Positions 16,691 through 28,776 of a DNA stretch of 64,000 nucleotides are shown piece by piece. The notes under the pieces were generated by a model. That model made no database searches. It worked only from the letters and a program-made list of their open reading frames with translations, and was not told the DNA's origin. The DNA is from Candidatus Paceibacter sp. GTDB taxonomy: Bacteria > Patescibacteriota > Minisyncoccia > UBA6257 > 02-FULL-45-10c. Each line of letters opens with the position of its first letter. Positions within the stretch are counted from its first letter, which is position 1. The DNA is taken from the NCBI GenBank assembly GCA_020724845.1, contig DYGE01000001.1:58218-122217 (forward strand). The letters are read 5' to 3'. Position numbers and translations under genes: made by a program.

Positions 16691-16732
16691 CCACAACATT
16701 CTAACATTCTGCAGAATGTTAGAATGTTGTGG
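16691..16732. repeat. 42-bp perfect palindrome (ccacaacattctaacattctgc | gcagaatgttagaatgttgtgg)
   Basis: Read directly; two 21-bp arms with no spacer, intergenic. Confidence 0.9.
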
Positions 16733-18215: not shown

Positions 18216-18294
18216 CCGTTTCCCGACCCCTTCCCTATCAAATCTCTCAACCAAAAATTTTAAAAATAGAATAGACTTCTATTTTTTAAATTTG

Positions 18295-22008: not shown

Positions 22009-22054
22009 TTTACCTTATATTATCCCAGCCATGGCTGGGATAATATAAGGTAAA
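22009..22054. repeat. 46-bp perfect palindrome (tttaccttatattatcccagcc | ggctgggataatataaggtaaa)
   Basis: Read directly; 23-bp arms with no spacer, between thyA and the dCMP deaminase. Confidence 0.9.
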
Positions 22055-24473: not shown

Positions 24474-24764
24474 CTATTCTATTATTGCTAAAATGTCCGC
24501 TTCCTCCCCGACTAAATATTTTTTGCCGTCGACTTCCAGCTCATCGGGGCCGTATTTTTTAAATAAAACTAAATCTCCGACTTTCACTGACATTGGGACC
24601 CGTTTGCCATTTTCGTCCAGCTTGCCGGGACCAACAGCGACCACCTTGCCTTTAATCGGCTTTTCTTTTTCAGCTGTTTCAGGCAAGACGATGCCGGATT
24701 TAGTTGTTTTTTCTTCTTCGACTGATTCTATAAAAACGTGATCGTTTAATGGTTTTAGGTTCAT
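24474..24764 (-). CDS. groS: Co-chaperonin GroES
   Basis: 96 aa with mobile-loop region. Confidence 0.95.
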
Positions 24765-24808
24765 CTTTTTATATATTTTATTTTTACGACTAAGATAAAT
24801 TATAGCAA

Positions 24809-24835
24809 TTAGCAGTCAAGCGTCAAGAGTGCTAA
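24809..24835 (-). promoter_or_regulatory. CIRCE operator (TTAGCAGTC-N9-GAGTGCTAA)
   Basis: Inverted repeat one mismatch from the CIRCE consensus TTAGCACTC-N9-GAGTGCTAA, about 45 nt upstream of the groES ATG and directly downstream of a TATAAT -10. Confidence 0.8.
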
Positions 24836-24868
24836 TTTCTACGCATTATAAAACCCTCGCTTGAGGGT

Positions 24869-25555
24869 TTAGGTTGCTTGGGCGGATAGGGCCTTTTTAA
24901 TCAGCTGCGACCACTGCTCTCTTAGTTTTTTTACCTGTTTTTTCTGTTGAAAGAAGCTGCGCATGTCAACAATGCCGTCTCTGGTCATATTTACTACGAA
25001 AAACAACCTAACTTTAGGATATTTCTCTTCATGCACTACGGCCTTTTCAAAATAATCCAGATAATGCTCTAGCTCTTCATAGAGGTCCAGCAGAGTTTCA
25101 GGATTCTTGGCTGAATTTAACCTATAAAAAAAATTAGTGGAGTTTGCATGTTTATTGAATTCTTCCCATATGCAAGAATCGTTTTTCAGCAAATTTGACC
25201 TTCTGAAGTGATAAAGCAGGGTTCGGATATATTTTTTTATGAAATTAACGTGCAAAATGTTTTTTCGTTCTTTTGTCTTCAATTTGATCTTTTGCTTGCC
25301 GCTTTTGATTCTGCTCCGCTTCTCTTGCAGAGTTTTCTGGTCAAGTTTGCGGAAAACTTTGATTTGAATCGGCAGCGCCTTCCCGCCTTTTTGGGGAACT
25401 ACGAAAAAATCTTTGCCTTGTTTGTCTCTGGCGCTATTTGGTTCGGTATGGGTTACCAGCCAATAATTTTCTTTCTTAGCGATCCACTTAAGGATTTCGT
25501 GAGCTATCCTTTCAGCGGGCCGGTCGTGTGTTCTGCAAACCTGGCACTGGACCAA
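24869..25555 (-). CDS. Hypothetical basic protein
   Basis: 228-aa K/R-rich ORF with N-terminal CQVC. Preferred over the antisense low-complexity ORF. Confidence 0.45.
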   Translation of the reverse strand: MVQCQVCRTHDRPAERIAHEILKWIAKKENYWLVTHTEPNSARDKQGKDFFVVPQKGGKALPIQIKVFRKLDQKTLQEKRSRIKSGKQKIKLKTKERKNILHVNFIKKYIRTLLYHFRRSNLLKNDSCIWEEFNKHANSTNFFYRLNSAKNPETLLDLYEELEHYLDYFEKAVVHEEKYPKVRLFFVVNMTRDGIVDMRSFFQQKKQVKKLREQWSQLIKKALSAQAT

Positions 25556-25674
25556 GGCGAGCTCCTATGCGGTTTTCGAGGAAGAATAACTTTATCTTAT
25601 AGTCTTTCTGGTATTATTTCAATGCGGGGTAGCTCTCTCTTGGTCATTCGGGCTTCGCGGTGGGGACAAAGTGT

Positions 25675-25820
25675 CATAACCAGAAAGTATCCTCTTACCG
25701 GCACCAGCGTTCGCTGATTCCTGCGATCAGCGCCGCTTACGTCTCATCCTGATTTTCGCAAGCGAACCGAGCAAATCAGGATTCCGTCAGTTGCCGCACA
25801 GAGGATACTTTCTGGTTATG
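25675..25820. mobile_element. 146-bp element bounded by 21-bp perfect inverted repeats (cataaccagaaagtatcctct ... agaggatactttctggttatg) with two internal hairpins: MITE-like or structured RNA
   Basis: Read directly. Internal stems cgctgat/atcagcg and atcctgattt/aaatcaggat. Sits in a 300-bp intergenic gap. Confidence 0.5.
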
Positions 25821-25856
25821 CTTATCAGGTGGAGGTGTTATCCAAAAGAGAGCGCG

Positions 25857-26549
25857 CTACTCCAGGGTTCGCTTCAGGTATTCTTGTATTCTTTTAGTGT
25901 CAGGATGAAATTCTAATTCTTCGTCACTGATGATGATTCTGGGTTTGTATACGCTTGCCCGATTCGCAGCGATTTCTATTTTTTTAATTTGGATTTTCTT
26001 TAGTATTTTTTCCAGCCAGTCTCCAAGTGTCTCTTCTAAAAGCCATTCCAGCATTTTTTTTATTCGGCCGTCTTTTTTATACTTGTGCCGAGGATTTTCC
26101 TGATAAAGCCGGGCTTCGCCGATCCAATCTTCATTAGCGCGATAAAAGCGCTGAATTAGTGTAGTGTTGCCTAAAATTGGGATTACAGAGAGATATAGCT
26201 TTTTCCAATACTCATTATATGGAGGCGACAGCCGGTAAGATCGCGGCGAAACAAAGTGGCTGAAACACAGTTTGTCTTTAAAGTTGTCGGTTGTCGGTTG
26301 TCGGTTGTTAGCCGGATGTTTCGCCCACCAACCGAGCGGCTTGAAGATTAGAAAGCAGAAAAACCGCACCGTAAAAATCCTTTCCTCCCTGGCACCGACG
26401 ATTACATCAAAATCTGAATCTTCGCGCATATTTCCGGTTGCCAGCGATCCGGCAGCAAAGACAAAATCAATGAAAGGGATGTATTGAAGCGGCCAGCAGC
26501 GTTTTAGGAATTTATGCCACTTTTGTTCATGTAGGTTTTGTCTTGACAT
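25857..26549 (-). CDS. Nucleotidyltransferase-fold protein (Pol-beta-like NTase)
   Basis: GSLATGNMREDSDFDVIV matches the GS...D.D NTase signature. 230 aa with an internal in-frame triplicated heptamer. Confidence 0.65.
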   Translation of the reverse strand: MSRQNLHEQKWHKFLKRCWPLQYIPFIDFVFAAGSLATGNMREDSDFDVIVGAREERIFTVRFFCFLIFKPLGWWAKHPANNRQPTTDNFKDKLCFSHFVSPRSYRLSPPYNEYWKKLYLSVIPILGNTTLIQRFYRANEDWIGEARLYQENPRHKYKKDGRIKKMLEWLLEETLGDWLEKILKKIQIKKIEIAANRASVYKPRIIISDEELEFHPDTKRIQEYLKRTLE

Positions 26550-26688
26550 ATCCAGCTAGTATTGGTATCATGTGCTCGAGGTTAACAACGCTTGGTCATG
26601 TACCTTGCTTGGGTGCCCCATGTAAAGTGGGCGCTGTCCTCTCCGGTCCCCCCTGCACAAGCGCGCTTGTGCAGGGGGCATTTTTATT
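26543..26688 (+). ncRNA. Candidate small RNA (~110 nt): promoter TTGACA-17-TATCAT, then intrinsic terminator
   Basis: -35 TTGACA at 26543-26548, 17-bp spacer, -10 TATCAT at 26566-26571. Hairpin ccccctgcacaagc/gcttgtgcaggggg at 26649-26680 followed by TTTTTATT. No plus-strand ORF or downstream plus-strand gene. Confidence 0.4.
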
Positions 26689-27730
26689 CTTCTTGTAATA
26701 TTTCGGGGCGCCCTAAGAGTTCCGGCTCTATACCTACGGCCTGGTCGGTAATCTTTAGCACGTCTTTATCAATTTTGCCGAGTTCCTTATAGGCGCTGTT
26801 GTACATATTTACTGAAGTTCCCAGATGCGTTCCCAATTTTTGCATATATGATTCGTAGCTGGACAGATGTTTGCCAAGCGCTTCAACTCTCTTTCGGATT
26901 TCTTTTGCCGATTCTTCAATCTGCAAAGCTTTAAGGCCTTGAAGCACGGTCTGCAAATAAGCGAGGAAGGAAGTCGGAGAAACGATGATGACATGCCTAT
27001 CCTTAAAGGCGTATTGGATAAGATCCTGCGTATTTGCTTTAACCGCGCCTACTTTGTTGATCAGCAGATCGTAGTAAATCGCTTCGGCGGGAATAAACAT
27101 AAAAGCGAATTCCATCGTCCCCTCCTCCGGCTTTACATATTTAGCGGTTTCATCGATGCGGTTTTTTAAATCCTGCCGGAAAGCTTTTTCCAGCTCTTCT
27201 CGAGTTTCTTGGTCGCGCGCCTCTAAAATTCGGTTGTAATTTTCCAAACTGAATTTGGAGTCAATAGGGATTATTTTGTCCTGAACGAAAATAACCGCAT
27301 CCACGATAGTCCCATCCTTGAATGGATATTGCATCTGATATCGCCCCGGGGGAAGGACATTTTTAAGGAGCGTTTCCAGATAATATTCACCCAGCACTCC
27401 GCGCTGTTTCGGATTTTTGAGGATATCCTGCAAGTTCTGCAGCTGGTCGGCAAAGCTGACGACTTGCTTGTTGGTTTCATCCAATTTGGCGAGGCGTTCG
27501 GTAACATCCCGGATAATCCGGGCGCTTTCTGAAAATTGCCTCTGCATTGAACGGGTTGACTCGCCTATTTTGGAATCCAAAGTATTCCTAATTTCGTGAA
27601 GCTGGCTTTGGAGCATGACCAGAGACTGCTCATCTCTTCTTGTCTCCGGTTTTTGGCTGCGCAAAGCCCAAAATACAGTGGCGAATCCGAGCACTACAAC
27701 TATTAAAATTAATATTGAAAAAATATCCAC
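26684..27730 (-). CDS. rmuC: DNA recombination protein RmuC
   Basis: N-terminal TM, long coiled coil and RmuC core; GTG start. Confidence 0.85.
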   Translation of the reverse strand: MDIFSILILIVVVLGFATVFWALRSQKPETRRDEQSLVMLQSQLHEIRNTLDSKIGESTRSMQRQFSESARIIRDVTERLAKLDETNKQVVSFADQLQNLQDILKNPKQRGVLGEYYLETLLKNVLPPGRYQMQYPFKDGTIVDAVIFVQDKIIPIDSKFSLENYNRILEARDQETREELEKAFRQDLKNRIDETAKYVKPEEGTMEFAFMFIPAEAIYYDLLINKVGAVKANTQDLIQYAFKDRHVIIVSPTSFLAYLQTVLQGLKALQIEESAKEIRKRVEALGKHLSSYESYMQKLGTHLGTSVNMYNSAYKELGKIDKDVLKITDQAVGIEPELLGRPEILQEE

Positions 27731-27855
27731 CCCGTTAGAGCCAGGTCGTCTTTAGACGACCGTAACTCGGGCGGCTAAATTGTTTCTGGCGATTAATTAT
27801 GATTCTTAAAATAAAATATAGTTTAGCAGACATAGCTTGATTGGCTCTAACGGGG
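27730..27855 (-). promoter_or_regulatory. Structured rmuC 5' leader: 14-bp inverted repeat (ccccgttagagcca / tggctctaacgggg) spanning ~125 nt, with inner hairpin ggtcgtctttagacgacc
   Basis: Read directly; the proximal arm abuts the GTG start codon. Confidence 0.5.
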
Positions 27856-27885
27856 TCCATAGTCTTAATCTTTGAATTTTACCAT

Positions 27886-28122: not shown

Positions 28123-28776
28123 TTATGAAACAAGGGTCGCGCCGATCATTAGGTAGTCCAGATCGGTGCCAGCACGTAAATCCAGAAAATGTCCTTCCGG
28201 GAAAAGCGGGTAAGAATGAACAACATTGTCGTAAAGGCCGAATCTCTCTTCCACGTAAGAAGGAGAGACGAATGCCTTTGGCTCGTATTTTCTGCCATTT
28301 TTCCAAGCGAGCAGCATATTCGGAATTATATCAATTACGGCAACTTTATTTTCCGGAGACGCGGTTATCAGCAGGCTGTCCGCAGCATGGAATTCAAGCG
28401 CTTTTTCCGCCAGGCCCGCGTAACAGCAATCATTAACGAAGATCAACCGACTTCCATGATGTGCAAGCGCCAGAGCCAATTCGGAGTAGAAGAGAATATC
28501 GTCGCAAGTGCCCTGAACCGCCCATCCTCCACCATCTTTTTTACTGCCGTGTCCTATGTAAAACAGGCACACATCCTCTTTTGAGCTTTCTATAAATACT
28601 TCTTCCAGTTTTTCAAAAATTTCAGCGCTGTCCGCGTTTCTAATAATCAGCAGATTCTGCAAGGGAACTTTGAAGTCAGTAGTAAGGCTACTAGTTAATT
28701 GTTTAGCAACTTTTTCAAATCTCTGGCCGTCAGTATCCTTGGAGTTGGTTTTTCCAAGCACTATTATGGCTTGCAT
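28123..28776 (-). CDS. Clan CD cysteine peptidase, C13 (legumain)-like core
   Basis: His-Gly (LFYIGHGSKKDGG) and Cys (LIFVNDCCYAGLA) dyad in the spacing and context of legumain (IYFTDHGAPG / FYIEACESGS). Confidence 0.55.
   Translation of the reverse strand: MQAIIVLGKTNSKDTDGQRFEKVAKQLTSSLTTDFKVPLQNLLIIRNADSAEIFEKLEEVFIESSKEDVCLFYIGHGSKKDGGGWAVQGTCDDILFYSELALALAHHGSRLIFVNDCCYAGLAEKALEFHAADSLLITASPENKVAVIDIIPNMLLAWKNGRKYEPKAFVSPSYVEERFGLYDNVVHSYPLFPEGHFLDLRAGTDLDYLMIGATLVS

Follow-up and report, generated by a model that had tools for sequence, protein, structure and literature searches.

The 21-bp inverted repeat at 25675-25820 of the window (the whole stretch of 64,000 nucleotides from Candidatus Paceibacter sp. 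analysed here) is the three-way junction (3WJ) domain of a dispersed, multi-copy, mosaic repeat of Paceibacteria, a group of ultra-small CPR bacteria. It occupies the tip of a second palindrome, an outer repeat which we will call the shell. Comparison of the copies indicates that the minus strand folds into a long closing helix P1, followed by a short P2 and a junction carrying hairpins P3 and P4, with the junction conserved and the helices covarying. The copies sit in intergenic spacers in either orientation and the stems P1, P3 and P4 are exchanged between them. The family is apparently undescribed, and its unusual trait is that copies keep the interior junction but vary freely in, and swap, their terminal arms and hairpin stems. 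As an overall reading we favour, with moderate confidence, a REP/BIME-like mosaic repeat that is selected for structure and acts in read-through transcripts.

The original prediction, of a 21-bp perfect inverted repeat enclosing two perfect hairpins, is borne out by the coordinates and by a shuffle test. Read in reverse complement, CATAACCAGAAAGTATCCTCT at 25675-25695 matches 25800-25820 at every position, and at 90% complementarity the arms reach 29 nt (25675-25703 with 25792-25820). Allowing up to three mismatches, this 21-mer has only these two sites in the window, with 0 matches expected from shuffles. The enclosed hairpins are of 7 bp (25712-25718 with 25726-25732) and 10 bp (25746-25755 with 25773-25782). 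The minus strand folds with -78.7 kcal/mol (z -7.3 against shuffles) and the plus strand with -68.9 kcal/mol (z -5.2). All the neighbouring genes are on the minus strand, in the order RmuC, a nucleotidyltransferase (NTase)-like ORF, the element, a 228-aa ORF, groES and groEL. The palindrome is on their coding strand, separated by 36 nt from the NTase stop and by 119 nt from the 228-aa ORF that follows, so that the ORF positions agree with the proposed placement on the minus strand between the NTase gene and the downstream ORF. Relatives of the NTase carry the annotation Candidatus Harrisonbacteria or Paceibacterota, which marks the source as a CPR bacterium.

The palindrome is enclosed by an outer helix (25842-25853 with 25632-25643), which had been missed earlier, and the resulting composite at 25632-25853 begins 3 nt past the NTase stop codon (Table 1). 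On the minus strand the flanks of the palindrome are the C-rich linkers CACCUCCACC and CCCCACCGC of this outer element. The weak direct similarity of the flanks noticed before is real, but it is no target duplication: the similar flanks are these linkers. The sigma-70-like promoter listed in the table is context and lies outside the element.

Table 1. Parts of the composite element and adjacent features, in minus-strand order
Feature	Coordinates	Strand	Basis or remark
RmuC	26684-27730	minus	
Nucleotidyltransferase (NTase)-like ORF, 230 aa	25857-26549	minus	
Shell outer helix P0, 5' arm (GCUCUCUUUUGG)	25842-25853	minus	Inverted repeat; paired in MFE fold of 25615-25870
Shell 5' linker AUAACACCUCCACCUGAUAAG, C-rich	25821-25841	minus	Matches CAUCGCCUCCAUUUAUAA of relatives
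P1 5' arm, perfect 21-nt arm	25800-25820	minus	Pairing covaries across family
Internal loop GUG, then P2 5' strand CGGCA	25792-25799	minus	Model alignment
Junction ACUGACGGA, hairpin P3, start of GAGAC junction	25742-25791	minus	
P3: 10-bp stem, conserved GCUCGG bulge, apical UCG-CUUG-CGA mini-hairpin	25773-25782/25746-25755 (stem)	minus	
Junction GACGUAAG, then hairpin P4	25704-25741	minus	
P4: GCGG/CGCU and CUGAU/AUCAG stem, loop CGCAGGA	within 25704-25741	minus	
P2 3' strand UGCCG, then internal loop GUA	25696-25703	minus	Model alignment
P1 3' arm, second perfect 21-nt arm	25675-25695	minus	
Shell 3' linker ACACUUUGUCCCCACCGCGAAGCCCGAAUGA	25644-25674	minus	Matches shell motif CCCACYGCCAGCCCGA
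Shell outer helix P0, 3' arm (CCAAGAGAGAGC)	25632-25643	minus	Inverted repeat; MFE fold
Sigma-70-like promoter TTGAAA-17-TAAGAT	25594-25622	minus	Directly after shell; faces 228-aa ORF and groES/groEL
228-aa ORF, no Pfam match	24869-25555	minus	

Homologues were sought in a starting set of 80 loci around NTase relatives from species-representative genomes. BLASTN-short with the 146-base unit returned only chance matches in these loci; the first true homologue, found by nhmmer, is in locus L019, between RmuC and the NTase gene and on the opposite strand. It has the junction sequences in common with the window copy, yet every stem is different, with 15 compensatory pairs between the two. A covariance model built from these two sequences (R1) and a later one built from seven (R2) identified copies in 11 protein-anchored loci. 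With a structure-aware pattern based on the closest members, 102 metagenome stretches were retrieved, groundwater being their main source, and R2 placed 91 copies in the first 80 of these metagenome loci and 31 in the remainder, as well as 2 further copies in extended sequence of the source organism. The total comes to about 135 covariance-model matches on Paceibacteria contigs, more than 100 of them distinct. That the element might be single-copy and without homologues, a possibility raised with the original prediction, is clearly contradicted by these copies.

None of the known families that we scanned accounts for the element. The Rfam search that had been suggested matched no family to it: the 4227 models of Rfam 15, at E up to 10, gave nothing relevant over 24500-27000, the whole window at gathering threshold gave only a tRNA, and 13 loci with about 25 copies gave only tRNAs and a 16S rRNA. 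ARAGORN reported only tRNA-Ser at 18294 in the window. Viral contigs yielded no matching copy, and in the literature searched, including recent preprints on the discovery of intergenic elements, we found nothing similar reported for CPR. Two local resemblances were considered and dropped: one to 5S rRNA (GCGAGAGUAGG, CCCACC...CCGAA), where the order of the elements is unsuitable and Rfam reports nothing, and one of the shell linker to a tRNA 3' half, where the order is again unsuitable and neither Rfam nor ARAGORN finds a match. A single-copy housekeeping RNA such as 6S, SRP or Y RNA was abandoned because several copies occur per contig.

The compensatory changes that had been proposed as a check support every helix beyond the shuffle and slid-partner controls. 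In an alignment of 78 distinct sequences with 35 base pairs (A8), compensatory changes are found in 33 of the 35 pairs, against about 28 in 500 shuffles and 13-21 when the partners are slid; standard pairs fill 96.5% of the paired cells (68.6% in the 500 shuffles, 33-49% with slid partners); and the covariation score is 0.741, compared with 0.219 in the 500 shuffles and at most 0.09 with slid partners. All seven modelled pairs of P3 covary, as do 12 of the 13 in P4. On the same alignment RNAalifold predicts 33 pairs, 31 of them supported, and an independent analysis by mutual information arrives at the same helices. It further detects two pairs in the junction, between alignment columns 21 and 125 (CG 49, UA 20, UG 7) and between columns 24 and 121 (UA 41, AG 24, CG 10), which lengthen the P3 arm beyond an apparent tandem G-A motif. 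The internal loop and the P2 5' strand are conserved among copies as GU(G/A)CGGCAA, but since the metagenome pattern fixes several junction motifs, the conservation of junction motifs in A8 is partly imposed, and covariance-model alignments lean toward the structure of the model. The protein-anchored set (A7) shows the same architecture and is more diverged.

Which strand is folded can be judged from the mismatch types that distinguish the two strands. G-U pairs outnumber A-C combinations by 18 to 4 in A7, and by 15 to 1 in the outer part of P1, which lies outside the model and was scored symmetrically. This large excess of G-U identifies the folded strand as the minus strand of the window, and the asymmetry points to one and the same strand regardless of the orientation of the neighbouring genes. 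The structured-RNA reading of the original prediction is therefore upheld as far as the compensatory changes in every helix and the strand-specific G-U pairs are concerned, but its version as a leader between the NTase gene and the downstream ORF is unsupported, because the homologues lie beside unrelated genes and in either orientation.

What varies and what is conserved in this family is the opposite of what is expected for a miniature transposable element. The conserved portion is the interior junction and not the termini, and the terminal arms are the part least conserved in sequence: the P1 arms vary in both sequence and length, with 59 different 10-mers among 78 sequences, and P1 extends up to 18 further bp beyond the model. 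The proposed MITE reading therefore holds only in part. MITEs occur as multiple dispersed copies in one genome, as is the case here, but their terminal inverted repeats are conserved among copies, in contrast to the variable P1 arms; the target-site duplication typical of them is not found, the window copy being without one; and the ORFs examined in the window, like loci L155 and L115, contain no transposase. A classical MITE with conserved termini and a target-site duplication, for which the perfect 21-bp terminal repeat and the several copies could be cited, is thus barely credible given arms that differ in sequence and length around a conserved interior junction, and a chance palindrome, the other trivial explanation, is excluded by the folding z-scores together with the roughly 135 homologues. 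In one subfamily the sequence GCGAGC flanks the copy on both sides and continues into an outer helix. We considered it as a target duplication and rejected it, since within the outer element these direct repeats can pair, as G-A/A-G, at the base of P1. The outer helix of this subfamily resembles a stripped-down copy of the 3WJ family.

The stems behave as modules. One P3 variant is found with many different P4 and P1 variants, in free combination, and copies within one contig have completely different stems. The copies in L009 and L100 are instructive: shell, linkers and P1 are almost base-identical (judged by eye), P3 and P4 are entirely different, and the flanks outside the shell are unrelated. 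The free combination of modules and the pattern in this pair fit recombination or gene conversion via the junctions, and not a slow compensatory drift.

Nesting is likewise a general feature, as many copies are enclosed in a further long helix. The window copy forms a subfamily with those in L094, L111, L113 and L158. Its layout is an outer helix, the 5' linker CAUCGCCUCCAUUUAUAA (AUAACACCUCCACCUGAUAAG in the window), the 3WJ domain and a 3' linker that contains CCCACYGCCAGCCCGA, of which CCCCACCGCGAAGCCCGA is the window version. The outer helices are roughly 12-28 bp long (about 15-28 bp, by eye, in the homologous shells) and differ in sequence in each copy. In L009 and L105 the shell also occurs alone, with a 13-nt hairpin in place of the 3WJ domain, and these shell-only copies indicate that the window locus is one repeat inserted in the tip of another. 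In L111 (about 385-420) the 5' linker of the shell itself contains an inserted 32-nt hairpin (CCCCCACAUAAAUACUUAUGUGGGGG plus AUCCAU) with CCAU on both sides, which suggests, as far as sequence can tell, that small hairpins insert into other repeats. It belongs to a third hairpin type, with arms that begin CCCC(C)AC, which we also noticed in L030 (3733-3817), L035 (3127-3246), L048 (3226-3522) and L031 (3822-3933). Separately, L137 (4973-5160) and L113 (8480-8765) are identical in the 5' shell arm and the inner 3WJ, and have different 3' shell arms. The outer helix of L137 is unable to pair, so either two copies have recombined or the assembly is chimeric at this repeat.

Clusters of two or three copies spanning a few kb occur on several contigs. 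The densest, Ga0209541_10000705, has 6 copies in the 39 kb retrieved, about one per 6.5 kb, placed between genes for FtsH, a NUDIX protein, ribosomal protein S1, an MBL-fold protein and GyrA. Across copies the flanking genes are unrelated housekeeping genes, including those for FtsH, NUDIX, S1, GyrA, EF-G and a PBP, and the orientation relative to the two neighbours is evenly spread (25 the same as both, 24 opposite to both, 24 mixed), so that about a third of the copies are antisense to both. An association with the NTase gene was tested and rejected: copies are present in 11 of 88 NTase loci (about one in eight), with no fixed side or strand, as random dispersal would give. A cis-regulatory role, as leader, riboswitch or terminator of the NTase gene or of the 228-aa/groES-groEL operon, is suggested by the position of the window copy, on the coding strand between those genes, but we regard it as very improbable. 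Homologues lie beside genes as unrelated as those for FtsH and a PBP, in both orientations; the count among NTase loci is roughly at chance level for dispersed copies; and the closest NTase relatives, L084 and L085, are without a copy. Nor is there a U-tract after the stems. P1 is followed by ACACUU and P0 by CUACCC, unlike in an intrinsic terminator, and a terminator scan of the window predicted none at the element.

How would such copies be transcribed? Scanning of 78 copies revealed no positioned -35/-10 promoter signal upstream of P1. Past the end of P1, TTGACA-like hexamers cluster at 10-13 nt in 12 of the 78, and -10-like hexamers are commonest at 30-40 nt. Terminator-like hairpins are found about 25 nt before the 5' side in 19 of 104 copies on the same strand and in 13 on the opposite strand, and after the 3' side in 7 and 8, respectively, so the association with terminators is weak and on the 5' side. 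With terminator signals upstream and promoter signals downstream, many copies occupy the spacer between the two. This bears directly on whether the copies are independently transcribed genes for trans-acting small RNAs, with their own promoters and a shared protein partner that binds the junction, and with variable stems that supply only stability or processing sites. Such genes would have their G-U pairs on the same strand whatever the orientation of the neighbours, as observed; the junction covariation and the G-A motif are RNA-like; and where the downstream gene is convergent, the 3' end of the copy abuts the stop codon of that gene, as expected of a separate gene in a compact genome. However, no promoter signal is positioned upstream of P1, and a terminator often only about 25 nt upstream leaves no room for one. 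A density of up to one copy per 6.5 kb also speaks against small RNA genes, and nesting in other palindromes together with wholesale swaps of modules would be unusual for RNA genes. We therefore consider this a possible but unlikely explanation.

For the source organism, sequence that lengthens the window by about 10 kb on its left and 4 kb on its right brings the count to at least three copies in about 78 kb, the window copy included. A near-identical copy lies about 4 kb past the right end of the window and a diverged one about 4 kb past the left end. One of the two additional copies lies on the strand opposite to the EF-G gene, 14 nt past its stop. The other, with which a JGI contig begins, has a P1 arm and P3 stem identical to those of the window copy, but a longer P3 tip and a different P4. 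Logan contigs end 10 nt before the window copy and resume inside its last arm, the JGI scaffold of the same organism (contig L001) has an N run, that is, an assembly gap, exactly at P3, and both assemblies end inside the second copy. The presence of repeat copies in the organism explains why independent assemblies break or gap here. Among the loci retrieved, neither empty sites nor insertion boundaries were recovered.

The multiple copies, their different positions in different genera, their nesting and their effect on assemblies would all be expected of a non-autonomous mobile DNA that moves as a folded single strand and has no RNA function. Its junction would be recognised by a REPIN/RAYT-like or IS200/IS605-like Y1 transposase, or by a hairpin-loop enzyme, encoded elsewhere. 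The near-identical paralogues in the source genome can be read in the same way, a strand-specific fold that tolerates G-T suits a single-stranded DNA intermediate, and insertion into palindrome tips recalls IS1397 and ISKpn1, which insert into the loops of REP sequences. Single-strand transposons are, however, strongly strand-biased, whereas the copies here are unbiased relative to gene direction, which we used as a proxy for replication. In addition, the (G/A)UA(G/A)G motif covaries with its pairing partner and so is not a fixed cleavage tag, copies on the same contig differ wholly in their stems, unlike recently amplified MITEs or REPINs, and there is neither a transposase in the loci examined nor a target duplication. 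On balance this reading is doubtful, though together with the small RNA genes it is one of the two serious alternatives.

In its genomic behaviour the family appears, by analogy, to be most like REP/BIME, ERIC or Correia elements. REP/BIME and REPIN sequences are high-copy extragenic palindromes found between genes in both orientations; BIMEs are mosaics of modules and REPINs keep their hairpins by paired changes, as in this family. They are thought to be transcript stabilisers or terminators, and are insertion targets for other elements. A REP is, however, a simple GC-rich hairpin of 20-40 nt, with a sequence conserved genome-wide, an invariant GTAG/CGTC tag and a tie to RAYT transposases, whereas the Paceibacteria unit is a three-way junction of 120-150 nt in which the junction and not the stems are conserved. 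The GUAG-like (G/A)UA(G/A)G is not constant here: changes of its first base are matched at alignment column 21, so a GTAG-tagged REP was rejected. Correia elements of Neisseria, ERIC and BOX are likewise intergenic repeats of about 100-150 bp whose transcripts fold into long stems, which RNase III cleaves in the case of Correia; BOX is modular, and some of these repeats carry or create promoters. Their primary sequence and termini are conserved, and Correia has a TA duplication, in contrast to the variable termini, undetectable duplication and branched conserved core of the Paceibacteria family. Rickettsia palindromic elements (RPE) and the mitochondrial hairpin elements (double-hairpin and repetitive hairpin-forming) are small palindromes that have multiplied in reduced genomes, where they interrupt genes or one another, with no associated transposase, but they are simple or double hairpins recognised by sequence, and none has been described with a covarying three-way junction. 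A better analogue of RPE is a different palindrome family of these same genomes (CCCGTTAGA).

More distant likenesses concern the fold itself. As in integron attC sites, structure is conserved over sequence, one strand folds and the length varies; attC, however, is a single imperfect hairpin with conserved R''/R' at the base of the stem, in arrays of one orientation beside an integrase (intI), whereas here conservation is found in the interior junction and not at the stem base, and the copies are scattered among housekeeping genes in both orientations. Riboswitch aptamers and large ncRNAs share the complex fold, the conserved junction nucleotides, the covarying helices and the likely tandem G-A, but copy density, nesting and module exchange are unlike those of known ncRNA genes or riboswitches, and a riboswitch or 5' leader would keep a constant orientation upstream of a coherent set of genes, which is not the case here. 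Retron msr-msd has inverted repeats at its flanks and an adjacent reverse transcriptase (RT) gene; the neighbours of the window copy are the NTase-like ORF and the 228-aa ORF, with no RT domain.

We therefore return to the favoured REP/BIME-like, structure-selected repeat and outline how it might work. The element would probably be read as RNA when flanking or read-through transcription crosses a copy. Because no terminator separates the NTase gene from the element, we propose that the window copy would be carried as the 3' tail of the NTase transcript. Its long perfect helices would act as an RNase III site or as a barrier to exonucleases, while proteins would bind at the conserved junction, which likely has a tandem G-A motif. 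Recombination or gene conversion via the conserved junctions would keep the copies alike and reshuffle them, and new copies would arise preferentially in the tips of existing hairpins, giving rise to the nested arrangement. The main argument against this reading comes from the copies, about a third, that are antisense to both neighbours, as there the flanking mRNAs would carry the wrong strand. Furthermore, the DNA between an upstream terminator and a downstream -35 box, where many copies sit, may be poorly transcribed.

A more radical scenario, which we rate as distinctly doubtful, is that of a mobile 3WJ module that copies itself into hairpin tips via an RNA or single-stranded intermediate, or else of a large family of small RNAs. 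The mobile module would either be catalytic itself or depend on a CPR-specific protein that recognises the junction. Its targets would be terminators and other palindromes, and its activity would yield Russian-doll nests and let tens of copies exchange hairpin modules; extrapolation from the densest contig puts their number at perhaps about 100 in a genome. In a related version, paralogous small RNAs would serve one CPR-specific ribonucleoprotein.

CPR genomes are very small and gene-dense, with little space for selfish DNA, and to our knowledge almost nothing is known of their non-coding RNA. The family is either a major unrecognised RNA component of CPR, or a style of repeat in which structure is inherited and not sequence. 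There are also practical consequences. Assemblies break or gap at all three source-organism copies that have examinable contig context, and such breaks at copies explain some of the fragmentation and the chimeras in CPR genome bins. The covariance model is a ready marker for surveys of the family, and the conserved junction is a defined target in a search for partner proteins.

Other palindromes were seen along the way. A second, unrelated family has arms of the form (A/U)CCCGUUAGA(G/A) and is found in the window at 27704-27881 and in L019 (3002-3076 and 3869-3985), L030 (2987-3055), L034 (3242-3356), L049 (752-871), L157 (1080-1148), L172 (347-464) and L177 (656-764). At the window site the arms are of 15 bp with 98 nt between them, and the repeat lies immediately before the RmuC start and overlaps it. 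A short version (75 nt in L019, 69 nt in L030) is in frame at the same site of the NTase ORF, which it lengthens by about 25 residues (PVRGS...ASNGI) in the manner of RPE. The window also contains two perfect palindromes without a spacer, at 22009-22054 (46 bp), between thyA and a dCMP deaminase gene, and at 16691-16732 (42 bp); loop-less perfect palindromes of this length are unusual.

Finally, some of the neighbouring genes deserve mention. The 228-aa ORF between the element and groES has a TTG start and is lysine-rich; an exact-sequence look-up finds it in only one other contig, of the same organism, and the closest NTase relatives have other genes at its position. In the NTase homologue of L019 (2501-3322), besides the palindrome insertion, a segment of 14 residues directly behind the conserved GSLAT motif is repeated exactly in tandem (GNPRTQRAEQSSYD twice). 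A 217-aa ORF (28123-28776, minus strand), which lies two genes upstream of the NTase-like ORF, has weak matches, below curated cut-offs, to a caspase domain (E 0.004) and to the Nucleotidyltransferase-Associated Rossmannoid Fold (E 0.023).
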